Position numbers and translations under genes: made by a program
Notes under the pieces: generated by a model
Database searches by the model: none
What the model was told of the DNA's origin: nothing
Seen by the model: only the letters and a program-made list of their open reading frames with translations
Source of the DNA: Yuukianura sp. NJ FZ-2021
Lineage: Eukaryota
Direction of reading: 5' to 3'
Length of the DNA stretch: 64,000 nucleotides
Assembly: GCA_046563655.1 (NCBI GenBank)
Contig: CM102283.1
Coordinates: 1,860,001 to 1,924,000 of the forward strand
Part shown: in pieces, positions 6,424 through 63,248 of the stretch
Numbering within the stretch: the stretch's first letter is position 1
Layout: every line of letters begins with the position of its first letter

Positions 6424-9400
6424 TAACCTTCCTCAAGAACACAACACAACGAGCTGGTTCTTGGTAAAAATCAATGCTAAATTGGAGTGCAAAAATAGCT
6501 TTTTGGGGAAATAACTGTGAAACGACGGAATGAAGAGGCGTGTCGGTGCAACTCTCATGCAATATGGCCTTCATCAAAATTTTGAATGTCGAGTTGAATT
6601 AAAAAGAGAAAGTTAATCTGAGTCACAAAAGGCAAATTTTGGAATTGATGAATCAGCGAATCAGCCTTATTCATCTGTTCCAAAAAAAACGTTTTTTGGG
6701 ACAAAGAAATGATGCAGCGCACGGTATGTCGAGGCTCGAGGGAGACATAAAAAAAAATTAGTGACTCACCTTTCCCCTTCCGTTGTTTGTTGATTTAGTT
6801 CTACTTAGAGTCCTTCAACCTGACTTCCGGTAAACGCAATTGTACTGGATGTCGGTGTCGAAAGCCGGAACGGTAACGGAAACGATACTTTGAACAAAAG
6901 GAAAGATACTTGAGTGACCAATAGTAGACTCCACTAGAACATGTGTTTAGTCACTGTCACTTACATCACTGGGGAAGATGACAAGATGAGAACGTGATTT
7001 GACCTTAGTCGATTTACGATGAACCGGGTAGTGACTAATTCTGGAATTTCTGAACAAAAGGTGGCCGTTTCGTTTCACTTTCGTTCGAATAGATTCTCGG
7101 TTCATTAGACCTAAAATAACAAATGGTTACGGTGCAACAACGATTGGATTGTAAAAAACACAAATCACTTGTTGTTCACTTTACGCTGATTGTTGATTCA
7201 TTTGTGAATTGTGATGATAAGTGAATGACGACGACGATGATGATGCTGATGAAAGGAGGACGTTGACTTGACTTTTGTCCCTTCACAACAGTTTGCACTT
7301 AACACTCGCTTGTCTTGTACTGTGCAGCAACACTTCAACAAAAGATGCCAATTAAACTTTAGTTGGGTTGGTTTGGTTATATGCTCAATCAGAAATGATA
7401 GTCTTGTGAGAGTGACCTTGTCCTTGACGACAGCTTTGTCCTAGAACCCGACTTCATGTTCCTTGTTGCCTTGCTCTTGACTCGTCACAATCGCACTTAA
7501 CTTTCCGTAAACTGTCAATTGTCAAACCACTTTGACGACAACTGAGCAGGGAGGGAGGCTGCTGCTGTGTTGTTGCTGTCTGTAAGTTCTGGTTTGTTGT
7601 TAAGTCGTGTAGCACATCAAGAAGAACCTCCTCTTCCGTAGTGTTAATTATCCTTGGCTTAATCCTATTTGAAAGATGATTGTTGAGGTTATTGTTCACT
7701 GTGAGACATTTTGGGGCTGAATAAATAGAGGGCATAGCTCTAAAGGCTAGCCTCTGTTGTCGTTGCGTACCTGATGATGGGATAAAGTATTATCCCTGAC
7801 TTTGGTGGCTGGACTGGATGGATTTTGTTGCGGGTAGTACAGAGTGTACCACCGTCGCTTTCGTGTAGGACGATAGTTAGAACAGGGGAAATCGCGGTGA
7901 TCGTTGTGGATAGAACTTAAACTGCCATATCCGACTGCCAACAGCCCAATGTCCTTTGCCTGGCCCTGGCAATGAAGGTGTCTGTGCCATTTGTTCCACT
8001 CCTGCTTAAAAAGATAGGGAGTTGTTATAAGTTTCCAAACCCAAAAGGTGTCCACAACCCTCTTTGTTCGTGGATCATGGTTTTACTTACTACTTGGATA
8101 TTGCAGACGAATACATGGCCAGATATAACCTCATCCGTTCGTGCCTGGCTCTGCGATGAATGATGCGAAGTGTTTCGCTATGACTTTCGTCTGCCCCTTC
8201 TTTCCTTGTCTCTGTCTCAGTAACCTTGCATTCATTCCATCCGAAACTCAGTCTAAAAAACAAAGAAAAGTACAACCAAAACAATCTCCAATGTCTATTC
8301 TTTCAAAAACAGTACTTACGAACCGTGTTGATGTGCATTTCACCTTGCCTTATGATTGGACGTCATCCTTAACTAATGCTGGCCTGAGATTAGACAAGGA
8401 CATCCTAAGAAACTTAAACGGAAAATATTTTATGATCTTTACGATAAAGACTGTTTACTTTTTACAGAAAGTTTACCTATGTCATATGTCAGGTAAGTAA
8501 CACAAGGTCAGCATGTCGAGGTCAACAAGTCGAGGTCAATGATCAGGTCGTCGTCAGCCGAATCCGAAATCTATCCAGTTGTAAATCAGAAAACGAAAAA
8601 ACGATGAAACGAAACGATCCTCCCGGTGGAATCCAGAAAGCGAAAGCAAGAACCGATTTTTAATTGTTGAGGAGCAAAAAAGTTTGAAAACAAAAACAAC
8701 AAATGTGTTCCCGCGTTTTTATTGATTCGCAATAAAATTTAACGTCCCTAACTTTTAGTTTACGTTGTTAATTGAACCAGTTACTTTTCATTATTTAACG
8801 TAAGCTGCAATTAACGTTCTAATTAAAACGATTAACGACCAAACTAATTAGTTTGAGTAAATGGCGACTATTAAATCCAAAAAACAGGCGCCAAATAGTT
8901 AAATCATATAAAGTAAAATGTGTCTGTCTGTTTGTCTGTCACCAGCCAAGGTTTGTGCAGAAATGACCTTGACCTTGACGTCTGCTAACCGCAAAGCTTC
9001 ATCATGACTTTTTAAGAAAAAGTTTTCGTTTACTGCACTTTGAACATTTCTAACACTTTGGCTTTGTGAACTTTGGGAGTTGAAATGTGACCTCATAAGG
9101 GTGCTTAAAATCAAAACCAAAAGAAGATCAAGAAGAAGAATGTCGTTATATTTTTAGAACCTCCATAATAAATTGTAATTGGACTCTTTATGTCTTGAAC
9201 ATTCAAACTTTCCCGCCCGCCCACGCACGCTTCTTTCTGAATGTGATCTTGTGACTACTTTGTCTCTTCGTCTGGATCTTCCTGGAGCAGGGTACCTTCA
9301 GCATTAAAGTGTCAAATGGAAATAGTGCTATGGATGTTATAAAGTTCTCGGTTGGCAGTGTGCGTGGGACGGTGGACATGTTGACTTGTTGAAAAGTTGC

Positions 9401-13681: not shown

Positions 13682-15211
13682 ATGGCGAGTAGCAGCACTC
13701 GAAATGGATCCGGGCAGTCCAGTGGCACTGGAACACCAAAAACAGCTGAGATCGTTTTGAATTCCAGTTTGAGTGGGGCGGACGCTGGAGGCAGTAGCAC
13801 AGGAAATGCTGGCAGTGGTGGCTCTGCCAATGGTTCATCAACTTCTCAGAAGGCTCCACCGAAGTTGAAACAGTCGTCGAATGTCTTTGGAATCGGTATT
13901 GCATCAAAAATGTTTCAATGGTTATGTACATTTTAAGCTCACTGACTTACATTTGTATTGTTTTAGATGTATCACAGAAAGCAGAAATAGATGACCTCCG
14001 TGAACAATTCAAGAAGAATAACCGTGTTCGTGAGTTTGCATCACACAGTAACAAAGTTCATTCTGTAGATTGGAATTGTGATGGTCGACGACTTGCCTCG
14101 GGGTCATTTGATAAAACTGTTGCCGTATACATCTTTGATAACACTCGGCTTGTAAGTATGATCATTGGAAGTTGAAGATTTCAAGCTAAACAAGATTCAC
14201 GTTTGATGTACGAATACGCACGACCTTTTGTTTTGCTTTGATCTTCTAGAAAACTGACCATATTTGCAAAGGTCATGCAGATTCGGTGGATCAGCTCACT
14301 TGGCACGTCACGAATCCAGAACTTTTAGCAACCGCTTCCGCTGATAAGACTGTTCGAGTGTGGGACACAAGACAACAGAAGAACACGCACTGTTATCCCA
14401 CCAAAGGAGAAAATATTAACATTACTTGGTCAGGAGATGGAAATTACATTGCCACTGGGAACAAAGATGACCTCTTGACCTTCATTGACATTCGACAAGG
14501 AAACAACCTACTTGAAGAACAATTCAAGTTTGAAGTCAATGAAATCACCTGGGATCCCACTGGCAAACTCTTCTTTCTTACCAACGGAGAAGGAAATGTT
14601 TGCATCTACAGGTGAGGAACTTTGAAAAAGTTAGTTTGTTTTAGAATTTACCAATCAGCTGATCTTTACTGAAAAATCATTTTTGTTGATTAGTTTTCCA
14701 GAATTTCAATTGAAACACACCCTGAAAGCGCATACGTCCAACTGCATCTGCATAGAATTCCATCCTTCCGGTGACTACTTTGCTGTTGGTTCGGCCGATG
14801 CAATTGTGACTCTCTGGACTTCGGATACTCTCGCCTGTATTCGGACCTACACGAGGCTTGATTGGCCAGTTCGTGCCATCAGTTTCAACAGTAACGGATC
14901 TCTTATTGCTGCTGCCTCGGAAGACTTAGTAATAGACATTTCTCATACAGACACCTCAGAAAAGGTAACCAATCATAATGAAATTCTCTTATCAATTAGT
15001 TACTTCTTCAATTTCTTGTTCACAAGTTTAGAATAAGTAATAACTTTGATTATTTTTACAGATTTTTCAAATTCCGGTAGAAACTCCAACATTCACGGTC
15101 TCTTTCCATCCTTCCAAAAATATCCTAGCATTTGCCTGTGATGACAAAGACAAATATGATAGAGAAAGGGACAGCGGAGTCATCAAAGTCTTTGGACTTC
15201 CAAGTGACTAG
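13682..15211 (+). CDS. THOC3: THO complex subunit 3 (WD40 protein, Tex1)
   Basis: Exons 13682-13895, 13967-14151, 14250-14611, 14694-14964, 15062-15211 join in frame. Motifs KVHSVDWNCDGRRLASGSFDKTV, TKGENINITWS, RLDWPVRAISF and the C-terminus LAFACDDKDK...VFGLPSD*. Confidence 0.95.
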
Positions 15212-15740: not shown

Positions 15741-15827
15741 GCCCAGATGAGCCTCGCTGGTGCGGGGTGAAAGCTTCAAACTTTCGGCTGATTAACGTCA
15801 GAGGGGTTCGATTCCTCCTTCTGGGCG
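15741..15827 (+). tRNA. trnaSec: tRNA-Sec (selenocysteine, anticodon UCA)
   Basis: GCCCAGATGAGCCTCGCTGGTGCGGGGTGAAAGCTTCAAACTTTCGGCTGATTAACGTCAGAGGGGTTCGATTCCTCCTTCTGGGCG folds into the eukaryotic 9/4 Sec structure: 6-bp D stem with TGGT loop, 6-bp anticodon stem with CTTCAAA loop, long variable arm and G discriminator. An oligo-T run follows at ~15841. Confidence 0.95.
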
Positions 15828-18998: not shown

Positions 18999-21900
18999 TC
19001 ACTGAAATTGTTTTGAAAATGCGCGTGCAAACCGTTTGGGATCGGGCATGCGTGACATTTTGGGAGCCGTTCCTTGTGCCATTTTCTTGGGCTGGTCTGA
19101 CTTCCCTTGAGTGGACCGCCTTGGTTTCGGTTGGGCAGACGGTAGAATAAGAGTGGGTACATTGTCCACAATTCGAACGCGTTCGTTTCCATGCATCTCC
19201 ACTTCGTGCAAGTACTTTTCATAGCGAAGAAGGATTTCCCAGGCTCCGCGCTCCAGGCGCGCGTAGAGGGCGTTGTGGGCATACACACGAGTACTGTACA
19301 TTCGGTGGGCGTAGTAGCCCAGAATGATGAGACAGCATACTGTAAGAGTAGAAACAAAAGTCAAAAGGACTTAATGAAATTTCAAAGGTGAATCTACATA
19401 TTGGAAGTAGAAATCTTGAGGTCAAATGTCAAAAACGTAACGTTCAAAATTACAACTTGATACGGTATTTCTTGAAAATATGAGATGTGACGTTCAGGGG
19501 TCACAAGAATTGAGAGACAAAAAATTACAGTGCAAAAAATAAAATAAAATAAAATAAAGAACCGAGTGGGACTCGAACCCATATCTCTCCGATCCCAGAA
19601 GAGCACTAACCACTGAGCTATCCGGCTCTAATCGGACAGCTTGCTTAAGTGGTTAAATTCAAAACTTGGAAAGTCAGGAATCATGTTGAAAATTGAAAGT
19701 GAATGGATAAGTTGAGAGGTCAACACAGGTCAAATTATACATTGAAAGGTCAAAGGTCAACGTACTGAAAAACAGCATCACGAGAAATCTGACGATCGAG
19801 TAGAGTGGATCACTGCGGATGTCGGCATTCAAACTGACGGCGAAAAACGTTGTGTAGTCACAGAATGTATCAATTTGTCGGTCAATGTCAATTGCCAGGA
19901 AAAAGTACCTGCAAGGTCAAAGGTCAAAGGTCATCTAATGGGTTAATCAGAGGTCAAACGTCATCTGAAAACATACACGTCTTTTCGTTCCTTCCGATCC
20001 CAGATAATTGCGTTTCCTGAACCGCGTTGCATGATTTCATATGGATCATCTTCCGGAATGCGGAGATCTTCCACGTCTTCGGCAGCTCGGCGAGCAGGAA
20101 TTTCACATGGCAGGTGACTCTGTCAAAAAAAAAAATAAAAATTTTGAAAAAAAAAAAATAAAAATTTTGAAAAAAAAAATCTTAAAAATCTTTATTTTGA
20201 AATTCATTACGCTCTTCTGCCAAATATTTTGTGGATCTGCAACTGCTTCGGTGTGAAACGATTTGTATTTTTTGAAGGCTTCAAAAATGACTTTTCGGCG
20301 ATTTTTCCAGTCACGAAGAAGAGTTTTGAAGTTTAGCGGAGCTCGACGACATCCTAAGCCAATCAAAACGCGTTATTATCATAATAATACTAAATTATAC
20401 ATATTTCAATATGATTATATAATATATTAATATAAAATACTAATTTTGAGTTATGTTTAGCTCGCATTACCTGATTCCTTCACCGTTTTCAGGAAGCTGA
20501 ATCCACCTTGTCCGAAAGCCTCAATCAAAACGTCTAAAAAATTGCAATTTTGGTAGAGATGATTTGGGAATTTTAGTTTTTTAAAAAAAAACGCACTCTT
20601 GAATAAAAAGTTTTTTTTTAACACTCACATTGTCCAAGAAATGGTTTGCCTCTTGCAGTGTCCGTAATGTTCGAACTCTCTTTCAAGTTCAACCTGTCGA
20701 CCAATCAGCGCCAAGATTTTTTAAAAGTAAAAGGAATTCAAAATTGCAACTTTTTGGCGCCATAATTCAAATTACACTCTGAGATCAGGATGAAATGGAT
20801 CGAGTCTGTAAGGTTCAATGGGACATCCGAATGTTTTGTAGTCATATTCTACTACCCAACCGTCTCCATCTCGACTAAAAAGTTTTGGATCCTGGAAAAT
20901 CCAATATAAAAATTTCTGAAACTCGACAAACCATAAAAATTCTGGAATTGGGATTCCTATTTTGAAAAAAAAACTGGAACGTACTCGTTTTCTCCAAAAA
21001 CTGAGTAGCTCAGGATCATACTGTCCATCTTCAAGTCTAAAGTTGTATGTCTGATAGGCGTTTTCTGTGAAATCCCATAGACCAAAGAACTTTTGACATT
21101 GAGGTCGATCGTAGTCTTCATGCGCCACCAATTTTTTACCGCTGCAACCAAGGTTGACCAAAACATTACCACGAGGTTGCGTATGACACCGTTCTGCAGG
21201 AGCATTTGTCAGTACCAAGTTTGCAGATTCTGAAATTTAAAAAATCAGTGTTATAACTAAAGAAAATCAAAACACTTTTTCGAAATTTTCCGAATTTTGA
21301 AAATGTTGGTAAAAATTTTACGGTATGAAAACATGTCGTAGTTTGAGCCAAAGAAAGTGTCCTCGTAGAGTCCTGCGCCGCATAATAAAAAAAAATAACA
21401 TCAGTTTTTGAAGTGAATATTTGTTTTTTAAATTTTTTTGAAATATTGAAACAAAGTTTCAAGCGAGTTTCTTACGTAGTGAATCTTTGAGAATTCCGCG
21501 AGGCGTTACTGAAACTCTCTAAAAAACATATAATTATTTTGTTTGAATGACCTTAGAAGTAAATTGACCTTTGACCTTTCACTTTTTTACTACCCAAACG
21601 TGAGTTCGTTCCAGATTAAGAGCTCCTTTGGAAATAGAATTGTTCTTCACCACGTCAATTTTTAGCACTTGCGGCAAAGACGAAAAAATGCCCAACTCTG
21701 CATCTGCATTTTTGTCTTGCACGGACACCGTGAACACCGCGGTTTCTCCGAGGTCAATACTTCTCTCACGCGTGTCAACACTGAACGCAAATGTCTAAAA
21801 AAAGGTTGAGTCATTTCGCATGTAAAGATTGGAGTTGTGCACATTAGAGTTGTGCACCTATAGGCTTACACGACACTTTGAAAATCCGTCCTGCTTATTG

Positions 21901-24900
21901 GCTATTGCCGTATTTTCTTCAAAAAATGGACGAATGGCGTCCGTCAATTTAAACGGAATGTCGATGAGTCGGATGGCTTTCCGATTTTCATACTTGGCCG
22001 TATGGGTGTTATTGTTTTCCAAGAGAAAGTGCATTACTGATACAGCAAATTCTAAAAAAAAGTGCCAAAATTCAAAATTTGAAAATTTCAAAAAAAAAAG
22101 TGTCGACGATATTTGTCTCACTGATGTCGCCACTGTTGGTGTAGTACGGAATGAACTTGCGATTTGTACTGAACTTGATGAATGTATCGACGTACGGAGT
22201 ACACTCAGGGTCACTAGATCCCTCAAGACACTTCTCTTTTACTTCTACACACCCTGGCTCTTCTGCAAGGTCAAAGGTCAACCTCAAACATCAAAATTTT
22301 AGTTTCTAGTTTTTTTGAACTTACTAAGAGCCGTATTTTTGCATGCGTTGCAGACTTGTTGCGCACTTTGCCCTGGTGCACAAACCCCACGGTAGTCAAT
22401 CCTTCCCTCCGTTTCTGCAATTCGACCGACCAGAAGTCGGAACTCTTCGGTATAAGCCATGAATCCTACGGCATAGAAGTCACCGAATGTAAACGTTACG
22501 GAGTTTCCGTCCGGGTCAAATGCTACACTTGGAATGCTGAATCCAGGTTGCTGAAAACGGCGTTCGTAGTATCCCTCGTCAGATGCCGTGTAGAACACAG
22601 CGTTCCAAAAAGTGTAACCTGCAAATTTAAGAAAATGAATGTGAATAAGGTCATCATTATCACAGTATAACCTATGAAACGCCATTTCGCCCAATACAAT
22701 TTATAGGAACGTAACCTGAAAAAGACAGTGGAGTTTTTCTACTGAATGATCAGCGAAAAAAACGAACGTTTTTGCAGAAATCTCACATCGCCCCAACTAC
22801 AGTTGAGATTGTTTGAACAATATAATTAACAAAGTTTAAAACGATTCAAATTAATTTAAGCAATGACGTTTTAAAATACTAAAAAGTCAATTATGAACGC
22901 TTTCGGCTGTTTTTAAAATTCATTTTCAAATTCATTTTAAATATTTGAAACTTTTTTTTAGTTATTGTTCAAACAACTTGAAAAAGCGTTGGGGTGATGT
23001 GAGATTTCTGGAAAAACGTTCGTTTATTTTTCGCTGATAGCTCAGTAGAAAACGCCACTGTTTTTTTTACGTTAAGTTTTGCTATGAAATACGTTAAGAA
23101 ATGTCTTTTCAGAGCGTTTTTTTTTGGAGGAGTCGCGATTCATGGGTCATAATGACCTTGGGAGAAAAATTGTTTTTTTTTTTTGTTAAGTATTCATTTT
23201 TTGTTTACCGCCATTGACGGAGTGATACAGAATTGACTCGCAGCCAATGATGATCAAGTTCATACCACGCGTGCTCAAACGGATTTCAGGTTCACGTGGA
23301 ATTTCAACGTTCGGTTCAAGGTCAGAGTCTTTGACTGTACATGAAAGTCTTCGTTTTGACTTGAGTTTTCCATGGAGAAGCGGACTATTTTTGGACACAT
23401 CGAACTGAAACACGGCGTAGTTGATGTTCAACTGAACCCCCTGGGGGTGTCTTCGCTGCAGGGGGTCACCAAGGTCAGTTCGACACAGAGCCAGAAACCC
23501 CTTCTCTTCCTGGATAACCTCCACTGACACAATTTCAGCACAAATGACCTGTCGGAAGCAAGTCATTGTTTCGAAAAGATTGTTTCGAATGGGAATTGTT
23601 TCGAATTTGGAATCGACAAGTCTATAGGTTAGTTAGGTTAGAATGGGTTAGGTTTAGGCGTAAAAATGAGCGTTTCGAAACAATTGTTTTTCGAAACAAT
23701 TCAATTCGAAACATTTCCATTCGAAGAAATGGCATGAAATCGGACCTGTCCAGGTAGAACTGTTGGTGCTTCTTTTTCCTCTGTTCCATCCAGGATGGCT
23801 CTGACTACATGATCGGTGTCGTTTCCCCAGCGACCAGTCGCTTTGGCCTTGACGATTCGTCGGGAAACGAATTCAGGCGGTTTCAAATTTTGGCGCGTGT
23901 ACAAACCATTGATGAGTTTCAAAAAAGTTGTGTCTGAAGCAGCAACTAGTTTCTGATCCCAGGAATCTCCGTTGTCAAATGAAAGGTAAATCCGTTTCAA
24001 ATTTTCTTCTCTGTAAAAAATTGAATTATTTTTCATAAATACTCACCAAAATTTTAAATCGGAATTTGATTTTACGTATTTTTAATGTCGTAGCTGTACG
24101 CCACTGCTATTGGTTCCATTTCGTTACAAACTCCGGCACAACAGACATTCGAAGAGACGCGGTTGATTTTTCCAATAAATTTTATGTTTTTATGAATCGG
24201 TTTTTTGATATATTTTGAAAAAGTGTCCAAAATTAAGTCGTCTTCACTGTAGTCATCAGGATCAGGATCTGAAGAAAAAAGATCCCACGTAAACCATTGT
24301 ACTTTATAAATTTTGTTTGGCTTAAAGCAGACTCAAGGATTGTTGACTCGATTTTCTTTAACAGGTTGAGTAATACTTCATGTTTTTTCTGATTTTACGA
24401 GAAAAAGTGTATTTTAATTTCAGAGCATCGTAGTCATAACGATACAGCCGAATTTTTTAGATTCTGCATACGCATTGGTAGCAGTTGGTACAATTTTTTT
24501 TTTGGAACAAGCGAGGTAGTACCCAACTTGTTAAAGAAAATTCACTTTTCGTTGTCAAACAACCTTGAGCAGAATAAAGTTTTCCAACTGTGCGCAGTAC
24601 ATAAACTGTGCTTCTTACTTCTTTTAGCTGCTTCGAGGTAATTCGTAGGAGCATCAATTGGTTTGAGAATCATGATGCCACAGTACATTCCAAGAATAAG
24701 TCGGTTAGATGCAAACGTAAAGTCCAGAATATGGTTCAACCTGCTTGAACTCGGGACTAAGATGTCACTGCCGTTGGCGGGAACTTGAAGGGCCAGACAG
24801 TTCGGGTCAGTGTGACCTTCTGCAAGGCGATTCATTTGTTTAACTGGAGCGAACAGAGGTTGAATAAAGTCACGATGGAATGACCTTGGTCCGAAAGCAA

Positions 24901-26099
24901 GGTAGAACGGATTGTACTCCTAAAGAGACAACAATAACAAAAGGTTAAAATGAGGTTGAACCGTACAAAGTAAAGTTAAAATCTTAAAAGCATGAAAATT
25001 CAATGAAGGATACAAAAATTGCCGAATGTTTAGTAAAATTAAGGCAATTAATTCAATGGAAACATACACAAAAAAAAGGCTAAAAAATCTCTACAATTTA
25101 ACTTCCTCATTTTATATGTTAAACATGTTACAAGTTTTTGAATTATAAAAGTTAAAAGGGTTAAATCAAAAATGTTAAAATTTTGGCTCAAGAGATATCA
25201 TGTCGTCCGGTTAAAAACTAATTAAAAATGTTAAACAAAAACGAAAACATGAGAGGAATGTTAGGAATTTTAGGAAGTTAGAAGTTTTAACCTGGGTGAG
25301 AGTGTAGTTGGGATTGATTGGTTTAAATCCCATTGCTCGAATGTGTGTTCCAAGACGGCGGTTACAAACGTAGTGTCGAAAAATTGAATGTTCCCCTCTA
25401 AAACTCAAAGGAGCAAATTTTTCTCCAAATTTTCTTTGTAGTCGTCCTTCGTATGAAACTCCGTTTGGCACAGCGTCCGTGTCAGAGACGATTCCTACAG
25501 AAAAAATAACTTCACTTTTTTTGAATTTGTTCACCTGAAGACTGCTTAAATTCTTGTTTTTCAAGAAGGTCATTGACCTTTGACCTCTGACCTCAACATT
25601 TACCTGGCCACTCAATGATCTCGAGGTCAGTGCCCTCATACTGTTGCTCCACTTGCCCAATGTCCATCTTAGGAAAGTACCGTTCCAGCTTCATAGCCCT
25701 CACGCGGAAAACCCCTCAAAAGAGCGAAAATCAAAATTAGCATTTCGAAAACTTGGAATTATTCATGAAAATTTTAAAAAATCCAATCAAATTTAGATTT
25801 TTGAAAAAATTACCCTCTTCTTCCTTGGGAATGTCCACACTCTTGGCGACAATGTCTATCGTGGGGTCATCTGTATTGGGTACACGAGGTGGCGCTGGGC
25901 CAATGGGCCCCGGGGCATTCGGGTTCGGTACTTTCCGTCCCAGTTTGTCAATGACATCGAATGGCACTGGATCAGGATCAGGGTTAAAGTGCACGCACGC
26001 CGAGGTTTCTTTGAGGTTGCATTGGGGTCGCTGAAATCCTTGTCCAACCACTTGCACAGCGGCGCAGACCAACAGCCACACAAGAATTCCACTGCGCAT
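18999..26099 (-). CDS. CATSPERE: CatSper auxiliary subunit epsilon-like (delta/epsilon family) type I membrane protein, ~21 exons
   Basis: Signal peptide MRSGILVWLLVCAAVQVVG and Asp-box IYLSFDNGDSW. The spliced C-terminal half has the CatSper-epsilon motif order: VNLGCSGKKL, VEYDYKTFGCP..FHPDLR, YVLIEAFGQGGFSFLKTVKESGC, PYEIMQRGSGNAIIW, YFFLAIDID..TFCDYTTFFAV, then a TM helix (IVRFLVMLFFICCLIILGYY) and a basic tail. Recognised from memory of the family, not from a search. Confidence 0.75.
19561..19626 (-). pseudogene. tRNA-like pseudogene or tRNA-derived SINE head in the last intron of the CatSper-epsilon-like gene
   Basis: Minus strand GCCGGATAGCTCAGTGGTTAG (A box)...GGTTCGAGTCCC (B box)ACTCGGT. 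The acceptor and D stems are mismatched and the anticodon loop is non-canonical. Confidence 0.6.
22726..23060. mobile_element. Foldback/MITE with long (~120-bp) imperfect inverted arms in an intron
   Basis: CAGTGG...ATCAGCGAAAAAAACGAACGTTTTTGCAGAAATCTCACATCGCCCCAAC is mirrored by GTTGGGGTGATGTGAGATTTCTGGAAAAACGTTCG...TTTTCGCTGAT...CCACTG. Weaker symmetry extends to ~22670-23115. Confidence 0.8.
23553..23742. mobile_element. Small foldback element with inverted ~15-bp TTCGAA repeats around a TTAGG-like core
   Basis: TGTTTCGAA repeats on the left, TTCGAAACA repeats on the right, central TAGGTTAGTTAGGTTAG. It fills nearly all of intron 23549-23745. Confidence 0.6.
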
Positions 26100-39900: not shown

Positions 39901-42444
39901 TTCGTTTTTCTTCCCGCTTTTTTTTGAACATGACAGTAATGACTCTCGAGGAAAGTCAAAAGGACAAAATTCAAAAGATGAAACTGAAGAAAGTTCTTTT
40001 GTGTATCCAAAGTAAATTCTTTTATTTGGATGAAACCTGAGACAATGTCTTAGATCTTTCGTGTGTTAAAAGCAAATCAATCAAGAAACTCTGAAAGATA
40101 CTTTCACCGAATATAAAACCAACCGCGCCCAAAAAATTCAAAAGTTGCCGCTCTTTGTACATACGTTGTGCAGAATTTGACTATTCAAAAAAAGAAAAGC
40201 CAGCCGGAAATGAAGCGACGTTTCTATTCTTTACGTTCACTTTCACAATGAATCACAATTTCACAATTTCTCAAAAATTGAGTTTTTGAACATTTTCCAC
40301 CAGATTTGAAGTTTGGAAGTTCATTGTGGAAGTGGAGAAGTTCAAAATTCAAAAATTGATGCTCCAAAATAAGTCTGACGGTGAAAGCGAAAAATAAATG
40401 TGAAAGTGAAAGCGAGAACACAGAACCGCACTCTGTGTTAACTTTATTTGCATCTTTTGATCTTATCTTTTCATGATCCTACTTAGCAAAAAGCCTCTTA
40501 GGCATTAATTAGACTTTTACTTTTAATTGGTTCATTAAAGCTTTTGAAATGACATTTTCTCCTTGGTTCATTTTTCATTGAAAGTGCTAATTGGGTAGCA
40601 CCAGCATAAAAGGTGGGAGAACTGAAAAGAGCGGGCAATTAATAGTTTGAAAATAGCGTGACATTTTTCGAACTAATTTCTTCTCGCGCGTTTTTTTTTC
40701 TTTGCATTTTTACCTGTACGAATGAAACGGCTCGGATCGCATGTGACGGGAAATTGAGAACGAGAAAAACGGTGGACACGAGCAAAAGTGTTTTGGTGAC
40801 ACGAACTTCAGCGGCGGATGACGCTTGGCCACATCTGAGCCCTCCACCTCCTCCTCCTCCTCCGCCTCCTCCTCCTCCTCCATGTCCAGGAGGCGATCTA
40901 CAAGTACGTCTCTGCCCACTGAAGATTCCTGGGAGTCTGCGTGACCTTTGACCTGATCCGTTACAAGTAGTGCAACACAATGTACTACTCGTTGTAGATG
41001 CTCCGTTTTGTAGAATTGGACCTGGATGGGATTGGGCCACATTGAGACTGATGGTTACACGGGTTTTGTCGGCTGAATTGATGGAGTTGGATCGATTCAT
41101 GGTTGAAGAAGCTGCAACGATAGTTTCTCGTTGACCTTTGAACTTCCAGACGCATAGGGTAATTCGAATGTTGAGAAACATTATGGCAAAGAAAGGAACA
41201 ATGAGAGTGAAAATGGTGTCCAGAGTGTTGGCGGTCATGGAGAACTCGTGGTAATCGTCTGGAACGGAACACACAAACTGAATGTGTGTGTAACTCCCAT
41301 TGCTGTCGGTCTGATTTTGAAAATCTGAAAAAAAAATGACAAAACCGTACAAAATTCACCTTCCTAACTTTCACCTTTTTCACCCCCTGAAAACGGGGAA
41401 AAAATTAATATTTTAGAAAACGGTTTCAAAAAATTCCTAAACCAAAGGAAAAAACAAATTGGATTTTCAATTCAGTGATCAAAAGAATACAGGAGGTAAA
41501 AAGTACACAGATTTTAAAAACAAATAAAAATAATATACGTTACACAAAATACACGCATTCAAAAAACACAAGTATTAAAAATACACACGTCTTCAACAAA
41601 ATTACCGACATGGTACTCGAAACACACTCGTCAAAAAACTACGCAAATCCAAAAATACATGTACCTACAAAACACGTACTAGAATACACACCACGGATCC
41701 AGAACAAGGTTTGTTTACTTTGATTTTCTAAAAATAAAATACACTTTTAGTTCGAAAAACCACCCCGCTTAAATTGTTTTTAGGTTAAAACTTTTTTCAT
41801 TTTCATCAAAATTCTTCAAATTGAAACTGTTTTCGACGCTACAGTTTGATACTATTTTAAACTTGCTATTATTAGCCAAAATTAGTGTATATTCATAAGT
41901 GGAACAACTTACCTGTCAAAGACAGTGACCCACTTTCCGTGTTTACTCCACCGCCGTGCCCCACACTATCGTAGTCTGGTGGGTTCAGCTCCACCGCAAT
42001 CGGAATCACCGCAGCTATGACCCACACGTACGAAAACACCACCAGAGCCACCACCGTCAGAATTCCAATCACTCTCTTGGCTCTGGCCACAGTACAGACG
42101 GTGGGTCGAGTCAACGGATACACCACAGCACAGAATCGTTCACACGTAAATGCCACCACTAACCACACCGACAGGAAACAAGTCACTTGACCCAGGTACA
42201 TGATGAGTGGGCATGTCACTCGCGTGGTAATGACTTCGTAGCCCTTGTCACTCAACCACACTGCAAATAAGTTAATTAGAAATCCCGTGTCGGAGATGGC
42301 CAGAGCTGCCAAGTAGTAAGATGAAGACAGATTGCGGTGACCCGAGGTCATGAAGAACACGGCCACTGAGAGACTGTTCCCAATAGCACCGAAGAGGCAG
42401 AGCGGTGGAGTGTAAAACTGATCCACGGTCTTGGCCAACTCCAT
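36974..42444 (-). CDS. CNMaR: Class A neuropeptide GPCR, CNMamide receptor-like
   Basis: Exons 42444-41913, 41324-40714, 37432-36974. Motifs FYTPP..GAIGNSLSVAVF, LSSSYYLAALAISDTGFL, FLSVWLVVAFTCERF..V.YPL.R..CTVARAK, VTKTLLLVSTVFLVLNFPS and TNFSVNFLLYCVSGRNFR. Poly-Gly in ICL3. An upstream exon is possible (acceptor at ~42476). Confidence 0.82.
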
Positions 42445-44672
42445 GATCTTTTGACGTGGGCCGACGACCCAGAGCTAGAAAAAGTAAAAGCAAAGGTCAT
42501 TAATCTTTGGAAGAATGATGAACATGTCAGGTTGAGTAGCAGAGGAGCAGAAAAAAACTTTTAGCCTAACGTAAACTTGTGGTAGGTTAACCTTAATATA
42601 ACCTGAAGTGTTAACATAACTTGAAGAGTGTTAGGTTAACCTAAAACGACGTCAGTAGTGACGAGGCGGGAAACTTCAAAACCAAACACTTTTCAAAAAA
42701 AAAGTTTCGAACGGGAGAGCAAAAATTGGAGTAGGGCTTAGCAGCTTAAGTTCGTTGAGCGACGTATTTTCAAACTTGAAGACAAAGCGGCCAACCGAAC
42801 CAAAATTTCCGACTGGAGAAACCCTAAAAAGGTCGAAATTTTGAATTCACTGTTCAAAATTTTGAATTCACTTTTCAAAATTTTGAGAACAAAGCAAACC
42901 TATGCTATACTTTCCAAACTTACAATTAGTCACTACATAAGCAGCTTATTATTCTACTCCATTCATGTAGGTATTCATTATATTAAAACCCGCTTTGTCC
43001 TAAATATTCTAAAGTTTCTAAAGAAATAAATGAAAGTCTGAAATTAGCAAATTATTTTTATAATAGTCTTCTTCAGTAAATCGTAGACGTGCGTCTGCAG
43101 AAGACTAAAAAGCAATTTTCGAATTCAAAAAAAAGAATTTTTTTTGCACCTTTTGAGAAAATAGGCGGTTTTTCTGGAAGAGCTAACAAAACACACGATC
43201 GTTTTAATTGCGCAAAAAACTTCACAAATACATTCACAGTGAACATAATATTAAAAACATTTTTTTTTAAATTCAAATGACTTGAGAAATTAAAATTAAC
43301 CAAACTTTTCTGGAAGAGTTAACAAAGGCACGCGATCGCTTTAATTAAAAAAAAAAACTTCACAAAAGGTTGAAGGGTAAAGACAAACTTTTTCCGAAAT
43401 TTTGGAAGTTTTCAAAATGTCAAGAGATTTTAATTAAGCTGTAATTCCAAACGGATGGTGAGGACCATTGTTCAAATGATATTTCTTTGAGTTGTACTTA
43501 CGTTAGTTTAATGTTAATTACAAAGGTTAAGTTTGGGTAATTATAATACCGTAATCGTAAGTGAGAGTGAAAGCTGACGTTGTTCTCACAATAATACGAT
43601 TTAACTTGTGCCAAATGACGCTTGTACCTCTCTTTTAACAGTAAAATTAAACGTGTTTTGTTTTCTTAAGGCGATTTTTTTCCTAAATTGGAAAACTGAA
43701 GTGTTTACGAAAGGCCTTCCGGCAGAACTCTGCTTTCTAGAGTTGTTCGCTCAGCGCCGAAACCGTAAAAAGCGAAAGGTTAGAAAAAGCGTCAGCGCTT
43801 TCTTGAATGTTGCTTTATAATTTAAAAATAATTTAAAAATTTAATTGAAAATTTGAAATTGAACTGATCTTAAGATTTTTAATTTGCTTTTGATGGGAGC
43901 TGTGACGTTAAAACTAGGGCTGTTCATGTTCCGGTATCAGAACTTATTTAATTATTTCCGGTGTCGTTTCGTTTCCACATTTTTTGGAAACGAACTTTCG
44001 GTTCCGTTTCCGTTTCGGTTCCAGAGTAGAGACACTACAGTTACAAGAACATTTTGAATTTGAAGTGGCTGAAACATAACGAGCGAATAAACAAAAGTAG
44101 TGTGACACATAGTCACATTTTATAAATTTCAAAAGAAAAGTTGAAAATACACCAAAAGTTGTTCAAAAAGTGGCTCACCTCAGTACTAATGGCAATTTTG
44201 GGTATGAGAAAATAAGTTTTCAAAAAATTAAATTTATAAGCACACAGCACTCAAGTAATTAGAGAGAACGCTGAATGCTTGATTCCAGCACATTACATTA
44301 GTATTGGATCCAGAATTTTAAAAATTGGCTTCTCCAGTACAACACACTCCTGACGTCCTGTTCCGCTCAAATCGGATGTTGAAATGAACCACTTTTTTGG
44401 CGTCGGAAGGGGATGATACTGCTCTAGTGTAGGAGAAAGGGTGATTGACGCCGCCGCGGTTCACCGGACGGTGGAACAACGGTTCCACGGTCATTAAGGT
44501 GGCATTGCGGCAAGGGCCATAGGCATAATGGTCTCCGTGTGGAGGCTACTGTGCCTTTAATGTTCCAGAATGCTGTCAGTACTTTACTTTGTGGACTTTA
44601 CTTTATTTTTAATGGGCCTGACTTTAGTTTTTTTTAGCAATTCTATTTTGTATTTTGCTAGTTTTTATTTGT

Positions 44673-57787: not shown

Positions 57788-60700
57788 ATGAAGCTGGAAA
57801 CTCATTGTTTACTATGCCAAAAGCTGTCGTTACAACTAGCAAATTCTCAGGATCCGACAACTAAAGGCTGGAAGAAGGCATGCGCTGATTCCATTTGCAG
57901 TTCACTTCGAATAACTGGCAAGCCGATTTGCTCTGTTTGGTTCAAACGGGCAACGTACTGCGAGGACTGCTACCAAACCTTTTGTGACTTTGAATTTATT
58001 GAAAAATCGATCCAGCGTCTTCAAAAACGTCTTCAGGAGATCACTGAAACTGCAGAACAATTGATACTGAAAAATGTCGAAGATTTGGGTTCCGGGGAGG
58101 ATAGGACGGGCGAAGAATACTTTGAGGCTGTGAAATTCATTGGCCGTGAATTGAGTCGAAGAGGGAAAAATACTTTTGACGATGACATTGACGATGGGGG
58201 TATCGGCTTTCGATCGGCAGTATTGCAATCAGATGAGATTGAAACAAATTATGAAGTTAAGACTGAAGTCGACTGTGACCCGTGCGACGTTATTTACAAT
58301 GATAATACTGATTACTTTCCTGTTTCTGCATTCAGTGAAACAGAATTTCGCAGCCAGTCTGGATCTGATCCGGAGGAAGATCCGCTTGGAGGACATAGCG
58401 GGCCAGATTCTCCGATTAATCAGGAACAAGTATCAGAAAGACATCCTCCCTCAATTTCAAAGAGAAGTACCAGACAAGGTTCGCGATACCTTCGGAATTC
58501 TTCGGGACCTAATACAACTTCTGATGCTGCATCAATCTCCGCAGCATCCTCCATGTCAATGGCAATGCCAATACAATCTACTTTAGGAGGACGTTATCGT
58601 CGGATTGCTCCTGCGCCATTTCCACGCGTTCCTTCACCTTCACCACCACAAGAAGTTCCATCAAAACCAACACCTTGTAAATTGGATCTTGAACGAAGTA
58701 TGGCACGACGACATCGACGTTGGAAATGGTACAGCCGTAGAGCTCAGCGCAGGACTAATACCGACGCTCCAAAAATAATCAACTCTGCTGCTATTACATC
58801 AACAGCACTAATCACAAACGTTGCTCCACGTCCACCTATAGCACCAGTCTTAGCTCCTACACCAGCACCAATTACGAACTTAGCTCCAATTATGCCACCA
58901 CTCACACAAGTTGCTCCAAGTAGAAGAAGAACACCAATCACAATAGGTCCAGCCAAGACACCAGTGTACAGTACATCTGCAGCGAGCGCCAGCGTATTAA
59001 ATTCATTACCACTTCGTCGAATTGCCCCAGCTCCATCTCCACTGCGATTCCGTTTCCCTCTCCCCCTCATCCCCATTGCACCAACACCTCCCCAAATTCC
59101 AGTAACTTCAACTGCCAGATCAACGTCAACTACTGTCGGACGACACCGTGATCTGGCTCCCTCCACATCCATACCGGAAACCGCGCTCTTGCCAACTCCT
59201 TCCCCAACTTCGTCGCCAATTCGCTATGTATTAGGCTCTATGATTTCTGGAAACAAGTAAGTTCAAAACCTTGACGACGTTTACGTGTAGTTAAGGCGTG
59301 TGCAAAATGTAACACATGTGCATTGTAAAATGTGAGATGTATCAATGTAAACTATTTCTGACGTACATGTACACACAAATCAAGTTTAACTTTTTCTGGT
59401 TTTAGTATACTACCATCGTTGCCGTTCTGGATGCCTGATACTTTTGGTGGAAATGTGATACGTACAAATAATCCAATGACGCAACCGCCAGCACTTATTC
59501 CCACGATACGGCCAGAAGTAATTGATATTGACATGAGCGACACTGAAGCACCAGCGGATGTTGATGTTGATCCTGCTGATTCTACCGTGCTGGATTCAAG
59601 CCCTGGAATTCGCAGTATATATTCAGCCATTACAAGCAGCACACTTCCAGCGATATCTTGTACTGTTCCTCAAGTTCTGCAAACATCGGCCGGAAAGAAA
59701 GTGAAACCTATGAAATCGAAGAAGATACGTTGCAATTATCTCAACTGCAAATACGAAACCTCTGCAAAGTTCCCTTACGTTTTAGATGCTCATGTTCAGC
59801 AAGTTCATCATGGAGGTGCAAAGCCGTTCCGTGTCTCCTACTGCAACGAAACTTTCAAGACAAGACATAATTTAAACGAACATGTCAACAGAGTCAATCG
59901 AAAACCAGTAAAACCGTCTCCAGTAGAAGTCGTTGATATTGACTTAAGTGACGGAGAGGCACCTTCCGAAACTAACGTTACGGGTTCTAAGTTAGTTAAA
60001 CTTAGAACTACTCGCCGAAAGTATTTAACAAGGAGTACGACCAAGTCAAATACTTATCCAGTTCTGCCAAAACGACCGAGAATAGAATTGAATCGACATC
60101 AGTGGAAGAGGCTATATTGCAGTTACGAAAACTGCGATTACAACACGCTGGAAAGGTTTGAGCACCTCTTAGCCGCTCATGTTCGAAAAGTTCACGAAGG
60201 AGATCAAAAGCCGTTCCATTGCTCCGATTGCACCAGAAGTTACACATCAATGGCTCGTTTGACCGACCACGTCAAAAAAGTTCACAGAGACCCAGTGATT
60301 TGCCCTTGTCCCCATTGCCCGCGTACTTTCAAATATCAAACGTCTCTTGATAACCATATGAAGTGTCGACATCCATATCCACTAAATACTGCTCGTTCTT
60401 ATCCCAAATGCAAGATATGTACGAAAATGTGTCGAGATGAAGCAGAGCTGGCAGCACATGAGGATTTACACAACGTTCCAGCTGATGGCGAAAACGTTTT
60501 GTCTTGTGTTCTCTGTACAACTAAATTCAGTTCGGACGTTGAACTGGGACGACATGTGAACAGAGTCCATGAAGATGAGTACCGGACAGTTAAGTGTCCC
60601 GACTGCGATGAATTGTTCTTCCGCAAAGAAGAGTTACGCAGTCATGTCAGAAATAACCATACCAAAAGGGATCCAAAGTTCAAATGCACAGTTGCTGGTT

Positions 60701-63248
60701 GCGATTTTGTGGGAGTAGGTCCCTCGTCTTATGCCGGTCATAAAATTTCACACTCAATTGCTAAACCGTTTAAATGCATCCGACCGAATTGTAACAAAAA
60801 GTTTAAGCATCAGCGAGGTCTGGACATACATACGCAAGTTCATGCGATGAAGGATAAACTGATTGAGCCCAAATTCACATGCTCCGTTTGTTCCAGAGGT
60901 AAGCAAAACTCTGACTTATTTTTGAAAAGTAAAAACTAAAATTTTGAATTGTTTTGAAATAGGTTTCATCAGGCAGGATTCGTTGGTTACGCATATGCAA
61001 AGTCACAACAACTTAAGGCCATTTCTATGTGACCAATGTCCAATGGCATTCAAGGCCCTTCCTTCTCTCACCAAGCATGTTTGGAGACACGCTCAACGTG
61101 CAGCTTTACACACATCTCCAGAATTTGACGCATCAGAGAATCAGGAAAGGCGTAGACAACGGAATCCAGCGGACCAAACTGCAATAATTGGTGAGTTTGT
61201 GCCAACAAAAGAATTTTTGAGTGTTTCTAATTCACCATTGACTTTGTTTCTGTTGACAGGTGACTGCTGTAAAGTCTGTGGAGACACTATGAATTTGGTT
61301 ATCGTTGGGTCTATAACGACGTGTTTCCCCTGTCGTATGTTTTTTGAGTATCATGAGACCAGCAAAACCAGCAATTCCGTTAAACTAAAGACCACTAACC
61401 GTATATGCGACAATGGAGATTGTACAATTACGACAGAGACGAGGAGTGATTGCAAAAGCTGCCGACTCAAAAAGTGTTACGCCGTAGGAATGAAAATTGA
61501 GGGTGAGTTTAAAAAAGTGAGGTCACTCCCCGCTGTAAATTTAACATTTTCTAATATATTCTATAAATGGTTTATAACGCAAACTCCGCAATATCCAAAC
61601 TTATATTTCTTATGTCAGATTATATCAAACCCGTAACAGAAGTCAGGATATCTTACCGTCGTGGCAAATCGCGATGTAAGAATGATAAGCCAAAGCCACG
61701 GTCCGGAAATTCTGAAACACGAGAGGAGTGTCCAATTTGCTTTTCCAAAAGTAGTCGAATTGGAGACGTCTTTGGTGCGACGGCGTGCCACAATTGTAGA
61801 AGTTTCTTTGCAAAAGCGACACAGCTTAACCGTGTGTTCAAATGTGCTTTCGACAACAACTGCCAGTTCACTCCAGAACGAGACGTCTATTGTGCAAGTT
61901 GTCGTATGCAAAAATGCATTGCTGCTGGAATGAAGACTGAGGGTAATCAACTAAATTAAAAAAAAAGTTCAAACAAATATTTCTTTCTATTTTCAGATCT
62001 TTTACTAACCTTTTTGATTACTTTTCTAGCGGTAGGAGTCAATTCTGTGTCACTAGTGACAGGAAAATGTCCTGTTTGTGAAAGGGATATGGAATTGAAA
62101 AACTTGTTTGGTGTCCTCGCATGTGCAAATTGTGGTCGCAATTTCTGGATGGCTGTTCGTCTCAACCGGCCGAAGAGTTGTCCAAAAGAAGTGCCATGCA
62201 GGAATCTACGGTCTTGTCATGGATGTCGCTGGACAAAGTTCGTACAAGCTGGATTTAAGCCCGAATGTAAGTGTATTTGCATCCTATAAAGTAAAAATGA
62301 GGAGTAAAGATTAATTTTTTGAAAATTTTCTGACTGGTATTTTTTGTAATTCAGTGGTGAATTTGCCAAAGGGAGTAATGGAACCTGTTCAAACAAGCTA
62401 TACTTGTGCAGTATGTGGTGATGCTGGCAAGCATCGGTGCCGTGACGGACGTGTGTGTGGCAGTTGTAGTTTATTTTTCAGTAAAATTACTGTAAAGGAG
62501 GCTGTGCCGGTTTGTACCAAAGGCGGGAACTGTCCCATTGACATGCTCACAAGAGTGGACTGCAAGGCCTGTCGTCTTCAAAAGTGCTACCAAGTCGGCA
62601 TGCGCCGAAGTAAAGTTGTCGTAAAAACATTTTTAAAGTAGAACTTTCCAAATAGTGTAAATTGATTGGTTGTTTGTGGTGTGTACAGCAAAGGCCTATA
62701 CGAGACGAACGGAACCGGACGGGTCTGTGCAAAATTGTAAAATCTGCGGTGACGTTTCCATTGGAAGTCGCTATGGAGTCCAATCCTGTGAATCTTGTTC
62801 CTTCTTTTTTATGAAGGGAAGTGGTAGGGACTTTGGAGACTGTATGGTGACACACGGAAACTGCGAAATTACGAAGGAAACACGCACGAAATGTCAACCT
62901 TGTCGTATGGCCAAATGTGTTGAGCAGGGCATGAAGAAAGGTCAGATTTAAAAAAAATGAAACTAACAGAATATCACAGTGTTTTGATTACGTTAATTGT
63001 TTTTTTTCCTAGCTCCTGAGCGAAGACGACTAGGACGAATTCCTAAAGATTCAGAAGAGGCTCGTGCCTTAAGGAAATTAATCAGCAACGCTGCAGCGGA
63101 ACCTGCTGAAGCTGCTTCCGCTGAAGCTCAAAATACTGCTGAAAATGCTGATGAGCCGCCGCAGTTTGCTCTGGAATTGGTTTCAGTTCCACATGAAAGC
63201 CCCGCCGGAACCACCTACTCATTTTCGTTGCCCGCAAATGAGTGGTAG
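57788..63248 (+). CDS. ~1578-aa chimeric transcription factor: ZAD-like C4 domain, Pro-rich region, 12 C2H2 fingers (one degenerate), five tandem nuclear-receptor-type DBDs, no LBD
   Basis: Nine exons join in one frame with GT-AG introns: 57788-59256, 59406-60898, 60963-61190, 61260-61502, 61619-61942, 62030-62266, 62355-62609, 62689-62940, 63013-63248 (4737 nt). Each DBD has CxxC...CxxC..F and C..C...CxxCR..K...G(M/F). Confidence 0.85.

Follow-up and report, generated by a model that had tools for sequence, protein, structure and literature searches.

The stretch of DNA analysed here, 64,000 nucleotides (nt) of contig CM102283.1 from Yuukianura sp. NJ FZ-2021 (assembly GCA_046563655.1, forward-strand positions 1,860,001 to 1,924,000; hereafter the window, numbered from its first letter), carries a gene of 21 exons on its minus strand, running from 26099 to 18999. 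This locus is likely to be an intact gene, conserved in relatives, whose product is a type I membrane glycoprotein belonging to the CatSper delta/epsilon family, a protein that would act in the sperm CatSper channel. Membership in that family is well supported by sequence comparison, and for the window protein it rests mostly on transitivity: the searches were made with single exons of the locus and with the relatives that these exons recovered, and it is largely the relatives that carry the CatSper assignment.

Reconstructed from the sequence, the gene opens at an ATG at 26099–26097, the first ATG downstream of an in-frame stop, and closes at a TGA at 19001–18999. All 20 introns (62–590 nt) are of the GT-AG type and their phases are all consistent, all 40 splice sites are canonical, and the coding sequence of 3873 nt specifies 1290 residues with no internal stop. 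A first-pass annotation had placed a gene of about 21 exons at 18999–26099 and had seen no stop in the junctions it traced; the rebuilt gene has identical coordinates and 21 exons, and its frame stays open throughout. One small additional exon, at about 22717–22680, was tried and rejected: its acceptor phase fits, but the frame reaches a stop unless the exon is spliced into a frame that fails, and the relatives do not match it.

Hydropathy analysis of the 1290-residue protein detected only two hydrophobic stretches, one at the N-terminus and one at residues ~1163–1190, in agreement with the earlier proposal of a signal peptide, a large ectodomain and a single transmembrane segment. The predicted topology is type I: a signal peptide and an ectodomain of ~1140 residues, followed by a single transmembrane helix and ~100 residues of tail. 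The whole protein contains 29 cysteines and six N-glycosylation sequons. The helix at ~1163–1190 spans the junction of exons 20 and 21; its split by the last intron in itself serves to check this junction. The C-terminal motifs that had been listed from the raw letters were all located in the spliced model, in the order given and within exons 14–20 (LGC..K, YDY...GCP, FHP, E..G...F.F..T.K..GC, PYEI......N.I.W and YFF...FC...FAV); only the last of them differs from its original description, being more widely spaced than had been written.

The gene model is supported by two comparisons that are independent of the splice-site reconstruction. When seven relatives were aligned to the window with tblastn, 16 of the 21 exons were matched in collinear order; no match fell inside the introns of the gene, and elsewhere in the window there were four weak ones (E 0.3–0.8). 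The second comparison is with L001, a metagenome contig of 12.9 kb found by scanning metagenomes with the relative P0001, which carries a collinear orthologue. Here 1181 of the 1290 model residues could be aligned, at 35–84% identity per segment, and L001 has introns at the junctions of the model, for example after exons 2, 3, 7, 12, 13, 16, 17, 18, 19 and 20. Stops in the L001 alignment are confined to read-through of that contig's own introns. The open frame retained across the divergence between the window and L001 speaks for a working gene. The same scan with P0001 returned three further loci (L002–L004), which were dropped since none gave a match to the spliced model at E ≤ 0.01, and a metagenome scan with exon 14 produced 168 pattern matches, none of which was confirmed.

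Relatives were recovered chiefly with the best-conserved part of the protein. A phmmer search of 1.84 billion representative sequences with the exon 14–15 read-through gave 15 matches at E ≤ 0.001, and 13 of these also align with the spliced model. The remaining two, a tetratricopeptide repeat protein (P0013) and a repeat protein (P0014), are false positives that belong to other Pfam families and are not matched by the spliced model. Other parts of the locus gave less: a word-based search of longer proteins with exon 8 yielded 155 candidates and none at E ≤ 0.001, and exon 7 found no usable match in the ESM Atlas. P0004 (316.8 bits) and P0007 (316.2 bits) score best against the spliced model; taking the size of the large library as reference, their E values are 3e-89 and 4.6e-89, respectively. 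P0004 is ODM86961.1, named in its source 'Cation channel sperm-associated protein subunit delta [Orchesella cincta]', and P0007 and P0020 are unnamed proteins of Orchesella dallaii. In a MAFFT alignment the window model is 28–31% identical to these three proteins over 900–1180 aligned residues, and the full-length P0020 and P0007 are collinear with it from the signal peptide to the C-terminus. Residues conserved across the family, including invariant Cys, Gly and Pro columns, are retained in the window protein. A word-based protein search with P0007 residues 1000–1505 returned three Orchesella proteins only.

The relatives connect this family to CatSper delta and epsilon at the level of curated domains. 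Eight proteins were scanned against Pfam, in which the C-terminal domain family CATSPERD-E_C (PF22850) has a cut-off of 27.4 bits. P0004 (56.8 bits), P0008 (29.4 bits) and P0007 (29.1 bits) passed it; P0005 (26.7 bits) and P0006 (14.8 bits) fell below it, with P0006 ending where the domain begins, and P0001, which ends before the domain, had no match. The window model aligns with P0004 residues 513–892 at 204.1 bits, a segment that includes the PF22850-matched residues 738–834. None of the eight proteins matched the CATSPERB or CATSPERG families of Pfam at E ≤ 0.1.

A profile built from eight family members (profile A1) was then searched against 177,635 PDB sequences. The four matches at E < 0.001 are all CatSper delta or epsilon chains (9ubw_G, 9ubw_H, 7eeb_H and 7eeb_G; E 5.8e-4 to 7.1e-4), the next match is unrelated (E 0.075), and no beta or gamma CatSper chain was reported at E ≤ 10. 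The alignments extend from YDY..GCP to a conserved cysteine, a stretch encoded by window exons 15–18. The identity claimed in the first-pass annotation, a CatSper delta/epsilon-like subunit, is supported by both the Pfam and the PDB searches, the PDB signal being weak but specific.

Structural comparison adds weak support for membership. A Foldseek search of 350,542 chains with the predicted model of P0005, a model of low confidence, placed 7eeb_H (E 3.2e-7) at the top of its ranking, followed by 7eeb_G (E 6.9e-6), and 7eeb_G gave the longest VIA-align alignment among the Foldseek matches that were re-examined. P0007 residues 1000–1440 have 209 of 256 features in common with their nearest cluster in the ESM Atlas, which is labelled 'CatSper delta-like' (score 0.93).

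Several observations weigh against this assignment. None of ten raw open reading frame (ORF) pieces of the locus matched a CatSper family in Pfam at E ≤ 1, and the exon 14–15 stretch had no phmmer match in the PDB at E ≤ 10. The link from profile A1 to mouse CatSper amounts to ~21 bits (E ~6e-4), and matches to the CATSPERD beta-propeller family (PF15020) are below its cut-off of 27 bits (17.0 bits for P0004 and 14.5 bits for P0007). The AlphaFold2 models, made from shallow alignments of seven rows, are poor, with a mean predicted local distance difference test score (pLDDT) of 35.0 for P0004 and 47.8 for P0005; the Foldseek TM-scores of the 7eeb matches are 0.25–0.31, and in VIA-align 7eeb_G (Z 9.5, root-mean-square deviation 6.7, 185 residues) stands level with generic immunoglobulin-like (Ig-like) folds (Z ~10). 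The window protein is larger than mouse delta and epsilon (805 and 985 residues) by 300–480 residues, and its branch in the family tree is long, at 2.48 changes per column, which makes its placement unsure. Finally, the P0010 cluster (P0016–P0019), metagenome gene calls that match model exons 15–18 at 107.9 bits, is named 'acetolactate synthase regulatory subunit' in its source; in all probability these are pieces of a eukaryotic gene that were mis-annotated.

The foremost alternative, which we consider improbable, is that the window protein is a true delta/epsilon homologue serving outside the canonical sperm CatSper channel, either because the pore subunits have been lost, as might happen in a lineage that turned parthenogenetic, or because it has acquired another role at the cell surface. 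The long branch would fit such a history, as would the conserved cytoplasmic tail: in the mouse chains the rest of the stem, the helix and the tail have to share the ~134 residues that follow the matched stretch, and the window tail alone takes ~100, so that, judged from chain lengths, the shorter mouse proteins appear to leave little room for a tail of this size. There is also a precedent in Romero & Nishigaki (2019), who report that certain animals have an incomplete CatSper set; one butterfly, for instance, has two pore subunits. Against a non-canonical role stand the intact frame over 21 exons and the conservation of the whole length of the protein with both L001 and Orchesella. No alternative function is generally known for the delta/epsilon family, and CatSper1 and CatSper4-like sequences have been recorded from other springtails.

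It is far less probable that the gene encodes a lineage-specific type I membrane protein with no kinship to CatSper delta/epsilon, the likeness being due to chance or to a common Ig-like module. The ~21 bits of the PDB profile matches, the parity of 7eeb_G with generic Ig-like folds and the failure of single pieces of the window to match Pfam or PDB directly would all be expected of such a protein. On the other side, P0004 scores twice the curated cut-off on PF22850, all four PDB matches below 0.001 are delta or epsilon chains aligned outside the Ig-like part, and the first two Foldseek ranks and the first Atlas cluster belong to the delta/epsilon family. A decaying relic, that is, a recently inactivated pseudogene that still looks open, is about as improbable, for although CatSper genes are frequently lost according to Cai & Clapham (2008), the locus keeps 3873 coding bases free of stops and frameshifts, canonical splice sites at all 40 positions and the family-conserved residues, invariant Cys, Gly and Pro columns included.

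If the protein is a CatSper delta/epsilon subunit, as we favour, the mouse channel offers a model for how it would act. The protein would be made in male germ cells and would assemble with the pore subunits CATSPER1–4 and with other large auxiliary subunits. Its transmembrane helix would pack on a pore subunit and its ectodomain would form part of the canopy above the pore. By this analogy, the subunit would be needed for the assembly and trafficking of a Ca2+ channel that responds to pH and voltage and acts as a switch of sperm motility.

Within the family, delta and epsilon cannot be told apart for the window protein. Profile A1 scores the two equally (20.9 bits versus 20.9 bits); Foldseek leans to epsilon (E 3.2e-7 versus 6.9e-6, with a P0005 model of mean pLDDT 47.8), while the ESM Atlas leans to the 'delta-like' cluster (0.93 versus 0.79) and the NCBI name of the Orchesella cincta relative is delta. 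Chung et al. (2017) assign epsilon the same ancient origin as CatSper1–4, beta and gamma and place delta later. On their account, the window gene most likely represents the undivided delta/epsilon lineage. A family tree was built from eight rows, all of which were retained. Orchesella dallaii has two paralogues in the family that are 48% identical, and the Orchesella paralogues (P0004/P0020 and P0007) form one clade with support of 100/99, apart from the other five sequences. It follows from this single clade that the duplication occurred within the Orchesella lineage itself and is separate from the split in vertebrates.

Conservation is higher in the cytoplasmic tail than in most of the ectodomain. 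Its motif AW.I..RYEK, which has not been noted before, is kept in the window protein, in L001 and in Orchesella, and a tail segment at window positions 19002–19250 (minus strand) matches L001 at ~8600–8800 over more than 20 consecutive residues. A tail of ~100 residues conserved in this way suggests an intracellular partner. A bolder reading, which we put forward tentatively and think doubtful as a whole, is that a functional CatSpermasome persists in springtails and includes at its base an enlarged delta/epsilon-type subunit of 1290–1506 residues, that the AW.I..RYEK tail couples the channel to a partner absent in mammals, and that the Orchesella duplication was independent of the vertebrate split. 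If this were true, the duplication would have arrived by convergence at a complex with two distinct subunits of the delta/epsilon type.

The literature on CatSper in arthropods is uneven. Cai & Clapham (2008) describe the protostome genomes then available as lacking CatSper and mention a CatSper4-like expressed sequence tag from the Arctic springtail Onychiurus arcticus; reviews such as Cooper & Phadnis (2017), citing that paper, continue to describe the whole CatSper set as lost in arthropods; and Romero & Nishigaki (2019) describe a heterogeneous distribution across arthropods. A 2026 paper in PLoS Biology (PMC13674862) lists a CatSper1 of 633 amino acids from Orchesella cincta in its Table 1 and states that auxiliary subunits form a canopy. 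The first-pass suggestion that this lineage keeps a CatSpermasome would thus draw on reports about other springtails. Among the papers searched, none pairs CatSper with Collembola by name. As far as these sources go, the record of CatSper parts in springtails consists of database entries and brief mentions, without a dedicated study; Romero & Nishigaki (2019) name the arthropods that keep CatSper in their Figure 4 and additional files, where springtails may be included.

The locus adds to this record an intact, checked auxiliary-subunit gene from a hexapod-lineage genome, together with a second orthologue in L001, and thereby supports the picture of patchy retention drawn by Romero & Nishigaki (2019). 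Very divergent sequences of this kind would help to define the indispensable parts of delta/epsilon proteins, namely the stem motifs, the transmembrane helix and the tail motif. The find is otherwise fairly ordinary, since delta/epsilon family genes are already annotated in springtails. It opens no new question: springtail CatSper proteins are publicly annotated, and one of them is used in the comparative analysis of PMC13674862.

The exons are described in order of transcription; all lie on the minus strand. Exon 1 (25814–26099) encodes the start codon, the signal peptide with its hydrophobic stretch and a proline-rich N-terminal part; its donor is GTAATT, and L001 aligns with model residues 7–39 and 81–97. 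Exon 2 (25604–25714) has a tblastn match to P0020, and at this junction L001 is likewise interrupted by an intron, which follows an 'EWPG' motif. Exon 3 (25292–25494) is matched in tblastn by P0020 and P0008, exon 4 (24619–24919) by P0007, P0020 and P0008, and both by L001. Exon 5 (24076–24268), with an 'S..CC' motif, lies in the region of the relatives' sub-threshold PF15020 matches and is supported by the model, Pfam, tblastn, the alignment and L001. Exon 6 (23746–24010) has the weakest donor of the gene (GTCCGA) and is matched in tblastn by P0007, P0020, P0004 and P0008 and by L001, of which one alignment crosses the exon 6/7 junction without an intron. Exon 7 (23209–23548), the largest with 113 full codons, and exon 8 (22325–22618) are each matched by five relatives; L001 covers exon 7 and has an intron at the identical junction for exon 8.

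Exon 9 (22122–22262) encodes a cysteine-rich insert that is not in the Orchesella proteins; no protein relative matches it, and L001 aligns there with model residues 664–728. Exons 10 (21870–22051) and 11 (21591–21794) are both supported by the model, tblastn and L001. Exon 11 falls in the Ig-like domain region, and the corresponding part of P0005 forms an Ig-like sandwich in the predicted model; L001 retains the residues 'W-V-R', which fit the donor used here, and an alternative donor is found 3 nt upstream, at 21594. Exon 12 (21476–21518), of 43 nt, was placed by the model with L001 as sole coverage, and exon 13 (21322–21372), of 51 nt, is matched by P0001 and L001. Exon 14 (20985–21229) is the best-conserved block, with RCH.QP, LGC..K and AHED..RPQC; all seven tested relatives match it, and it contains invariant alignment columns.

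Exon 15 (20776–20891), with YDY...GCP and FHP, begins the stretch that matches PF22850 and mouse delta/epsilon, and is supported by the model, Pfam, the PDB profile, tblastn and the alignment. Exon 16 (20629–20693) carries an N-glycosylation sequon (model, tblastn and L001), and exon 17 (20471–20533) the E..G...F.F motif common to mouse delta/epsilon (model, PDB profile, tblastn and L001). Exon 18 (20211–20353) opens with the conserved cysteine and ends the PF22850-matching stretch (model, Pfam, tblastn, alignment and L001). Exon 19 (19977–20119), with the PYEI...N.I.W motif, rests on the model and the alignment, with L001 as sole coverage. Exon 20 (19766–19908) encodes the membrane-proximal block and the first half of the transmembrane helix (model, tblastn, hydropathy and L001), and exon 21 (18999–19339) encodes the second half, the ~100-residue tail with AW.I..RYEK and the TGA stop at 19001–18999 (model, tblastn, alignment, hydropathy and L001).

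Two further features lie in the introns of the gene. ARAGORN reported a tRNA-Ser(GGA) of 73 nt at 19557–19629, within the last intron and on the same strand; Rfam gave no tRNA match at the gathering score for these positions, and the element is perhaps a tRNA that has degenerated, or else a repeat of tRNA origin. The 13-mer AGGTCAAAGGTCA, a repeated 7-bp unit, occurs in 19 copies in the window with at most one mismatch (0.11 expected), and ten of the 19 are in introns of this gene, at 19419–19963, 21565–21577, 22268–22280 and 25574–25593; introns 8 and 19 end in a repeat of this type immediately before the acceptor. The hexamer of AGGTCAAAGGTCA and its complement are ~3.6-fold over-represented in the window. 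In form, the 13-mer resembles a DR1 (direct repeat 1) nuclear-receptor site.

No further CatSper-related gene was found among the 20 larger neighbouring ORFs that were scanned, and the neighbours identified are ordinary genes. On the plus strand, a THOC3-like WD40 gene candidate lies at 13798–15036, as three ORF pieces at positions 1–37, 39–156 and 150–250 of the THOC3 beta-propeller profile, and a selenocysteine tRNA gene (tRNA-SeC, anticodon TCA) at 15741–15826, detected by ARAGORN and by Rfam RF01852 (71.1 bits, cut-off 47). Two exons belonging to a rhodopsin-family G-protein-coupled receptor (7tm_1) lie at 40639–42474 on the minus strand; the exon at 41893–42474 is closest to proteins of the springtail Allacma fusca (66% identity, versus ≤59% for other named arthropods), and the next-best named relatives are neuropeptide-receptor-like proteins of insects and crustaceans. 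Taken with the Orchesella relatives of the CatSper-type gene, this likeness points to a probable springtail origin of the genome. At 59362–61636 on the plus strand, an ORF for a C2H2 zinc-finger protein of 525 residues precedes a second ORF, which has a zf-C4 match of the nuclear-receptor type (E 4e-10).

Among known proteins, those of Orchesella are the closest in build. The window protein shares with them the blocks RCH.QP, AHED..RPQC and YDY..GCP, the transmembrane helix and, in the tail, AW.I..RYEK. At 1290 residues it is shorter than the full-length Orchesella proteins (1505–1506 residues), which have acidic or charged segments inserted downstream of exon 6 and ahead of the transmembrane helix that it lacks, and it has the cysteine-rich insert of exon 9 as its own; P0004 of Orchesella cincta, with 1116 residues, starts only near model residue 290. 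A 2021 paper on the structure of the CatSpermasome reportedly gives CATSPERB and CATSPERG, which complete the set of large auxiliary subunits, the same general build as delta and epsilon, and one chain of the CATSPERB/CATSPERG type, 7eeb_E, is Foldseek rank 4 for the P0005 model. The Atlas clusters likewise mix the CATSPERB_C, CATSPERG_C and CATSPERD-E_C families. With mouse CATSPERE and CATSPERD (chains H and G of 7eeb and 9ubw), likeness in sequence is limited to ~90–115 residues at ~21 bits. Within it, the stem domain (PF22850) has in common with the springtail family the Y[DE]Y...GCP motif and the downstream pattern E..G...F/Y.F/Y...C. The Ig-like domain that precedes the stem in the mouse proteins may have a counterpart in the low-confidence model of P0005 (mean pLDDT 47.8), and the type I topology of the mouse subunits recurs in the window protein.

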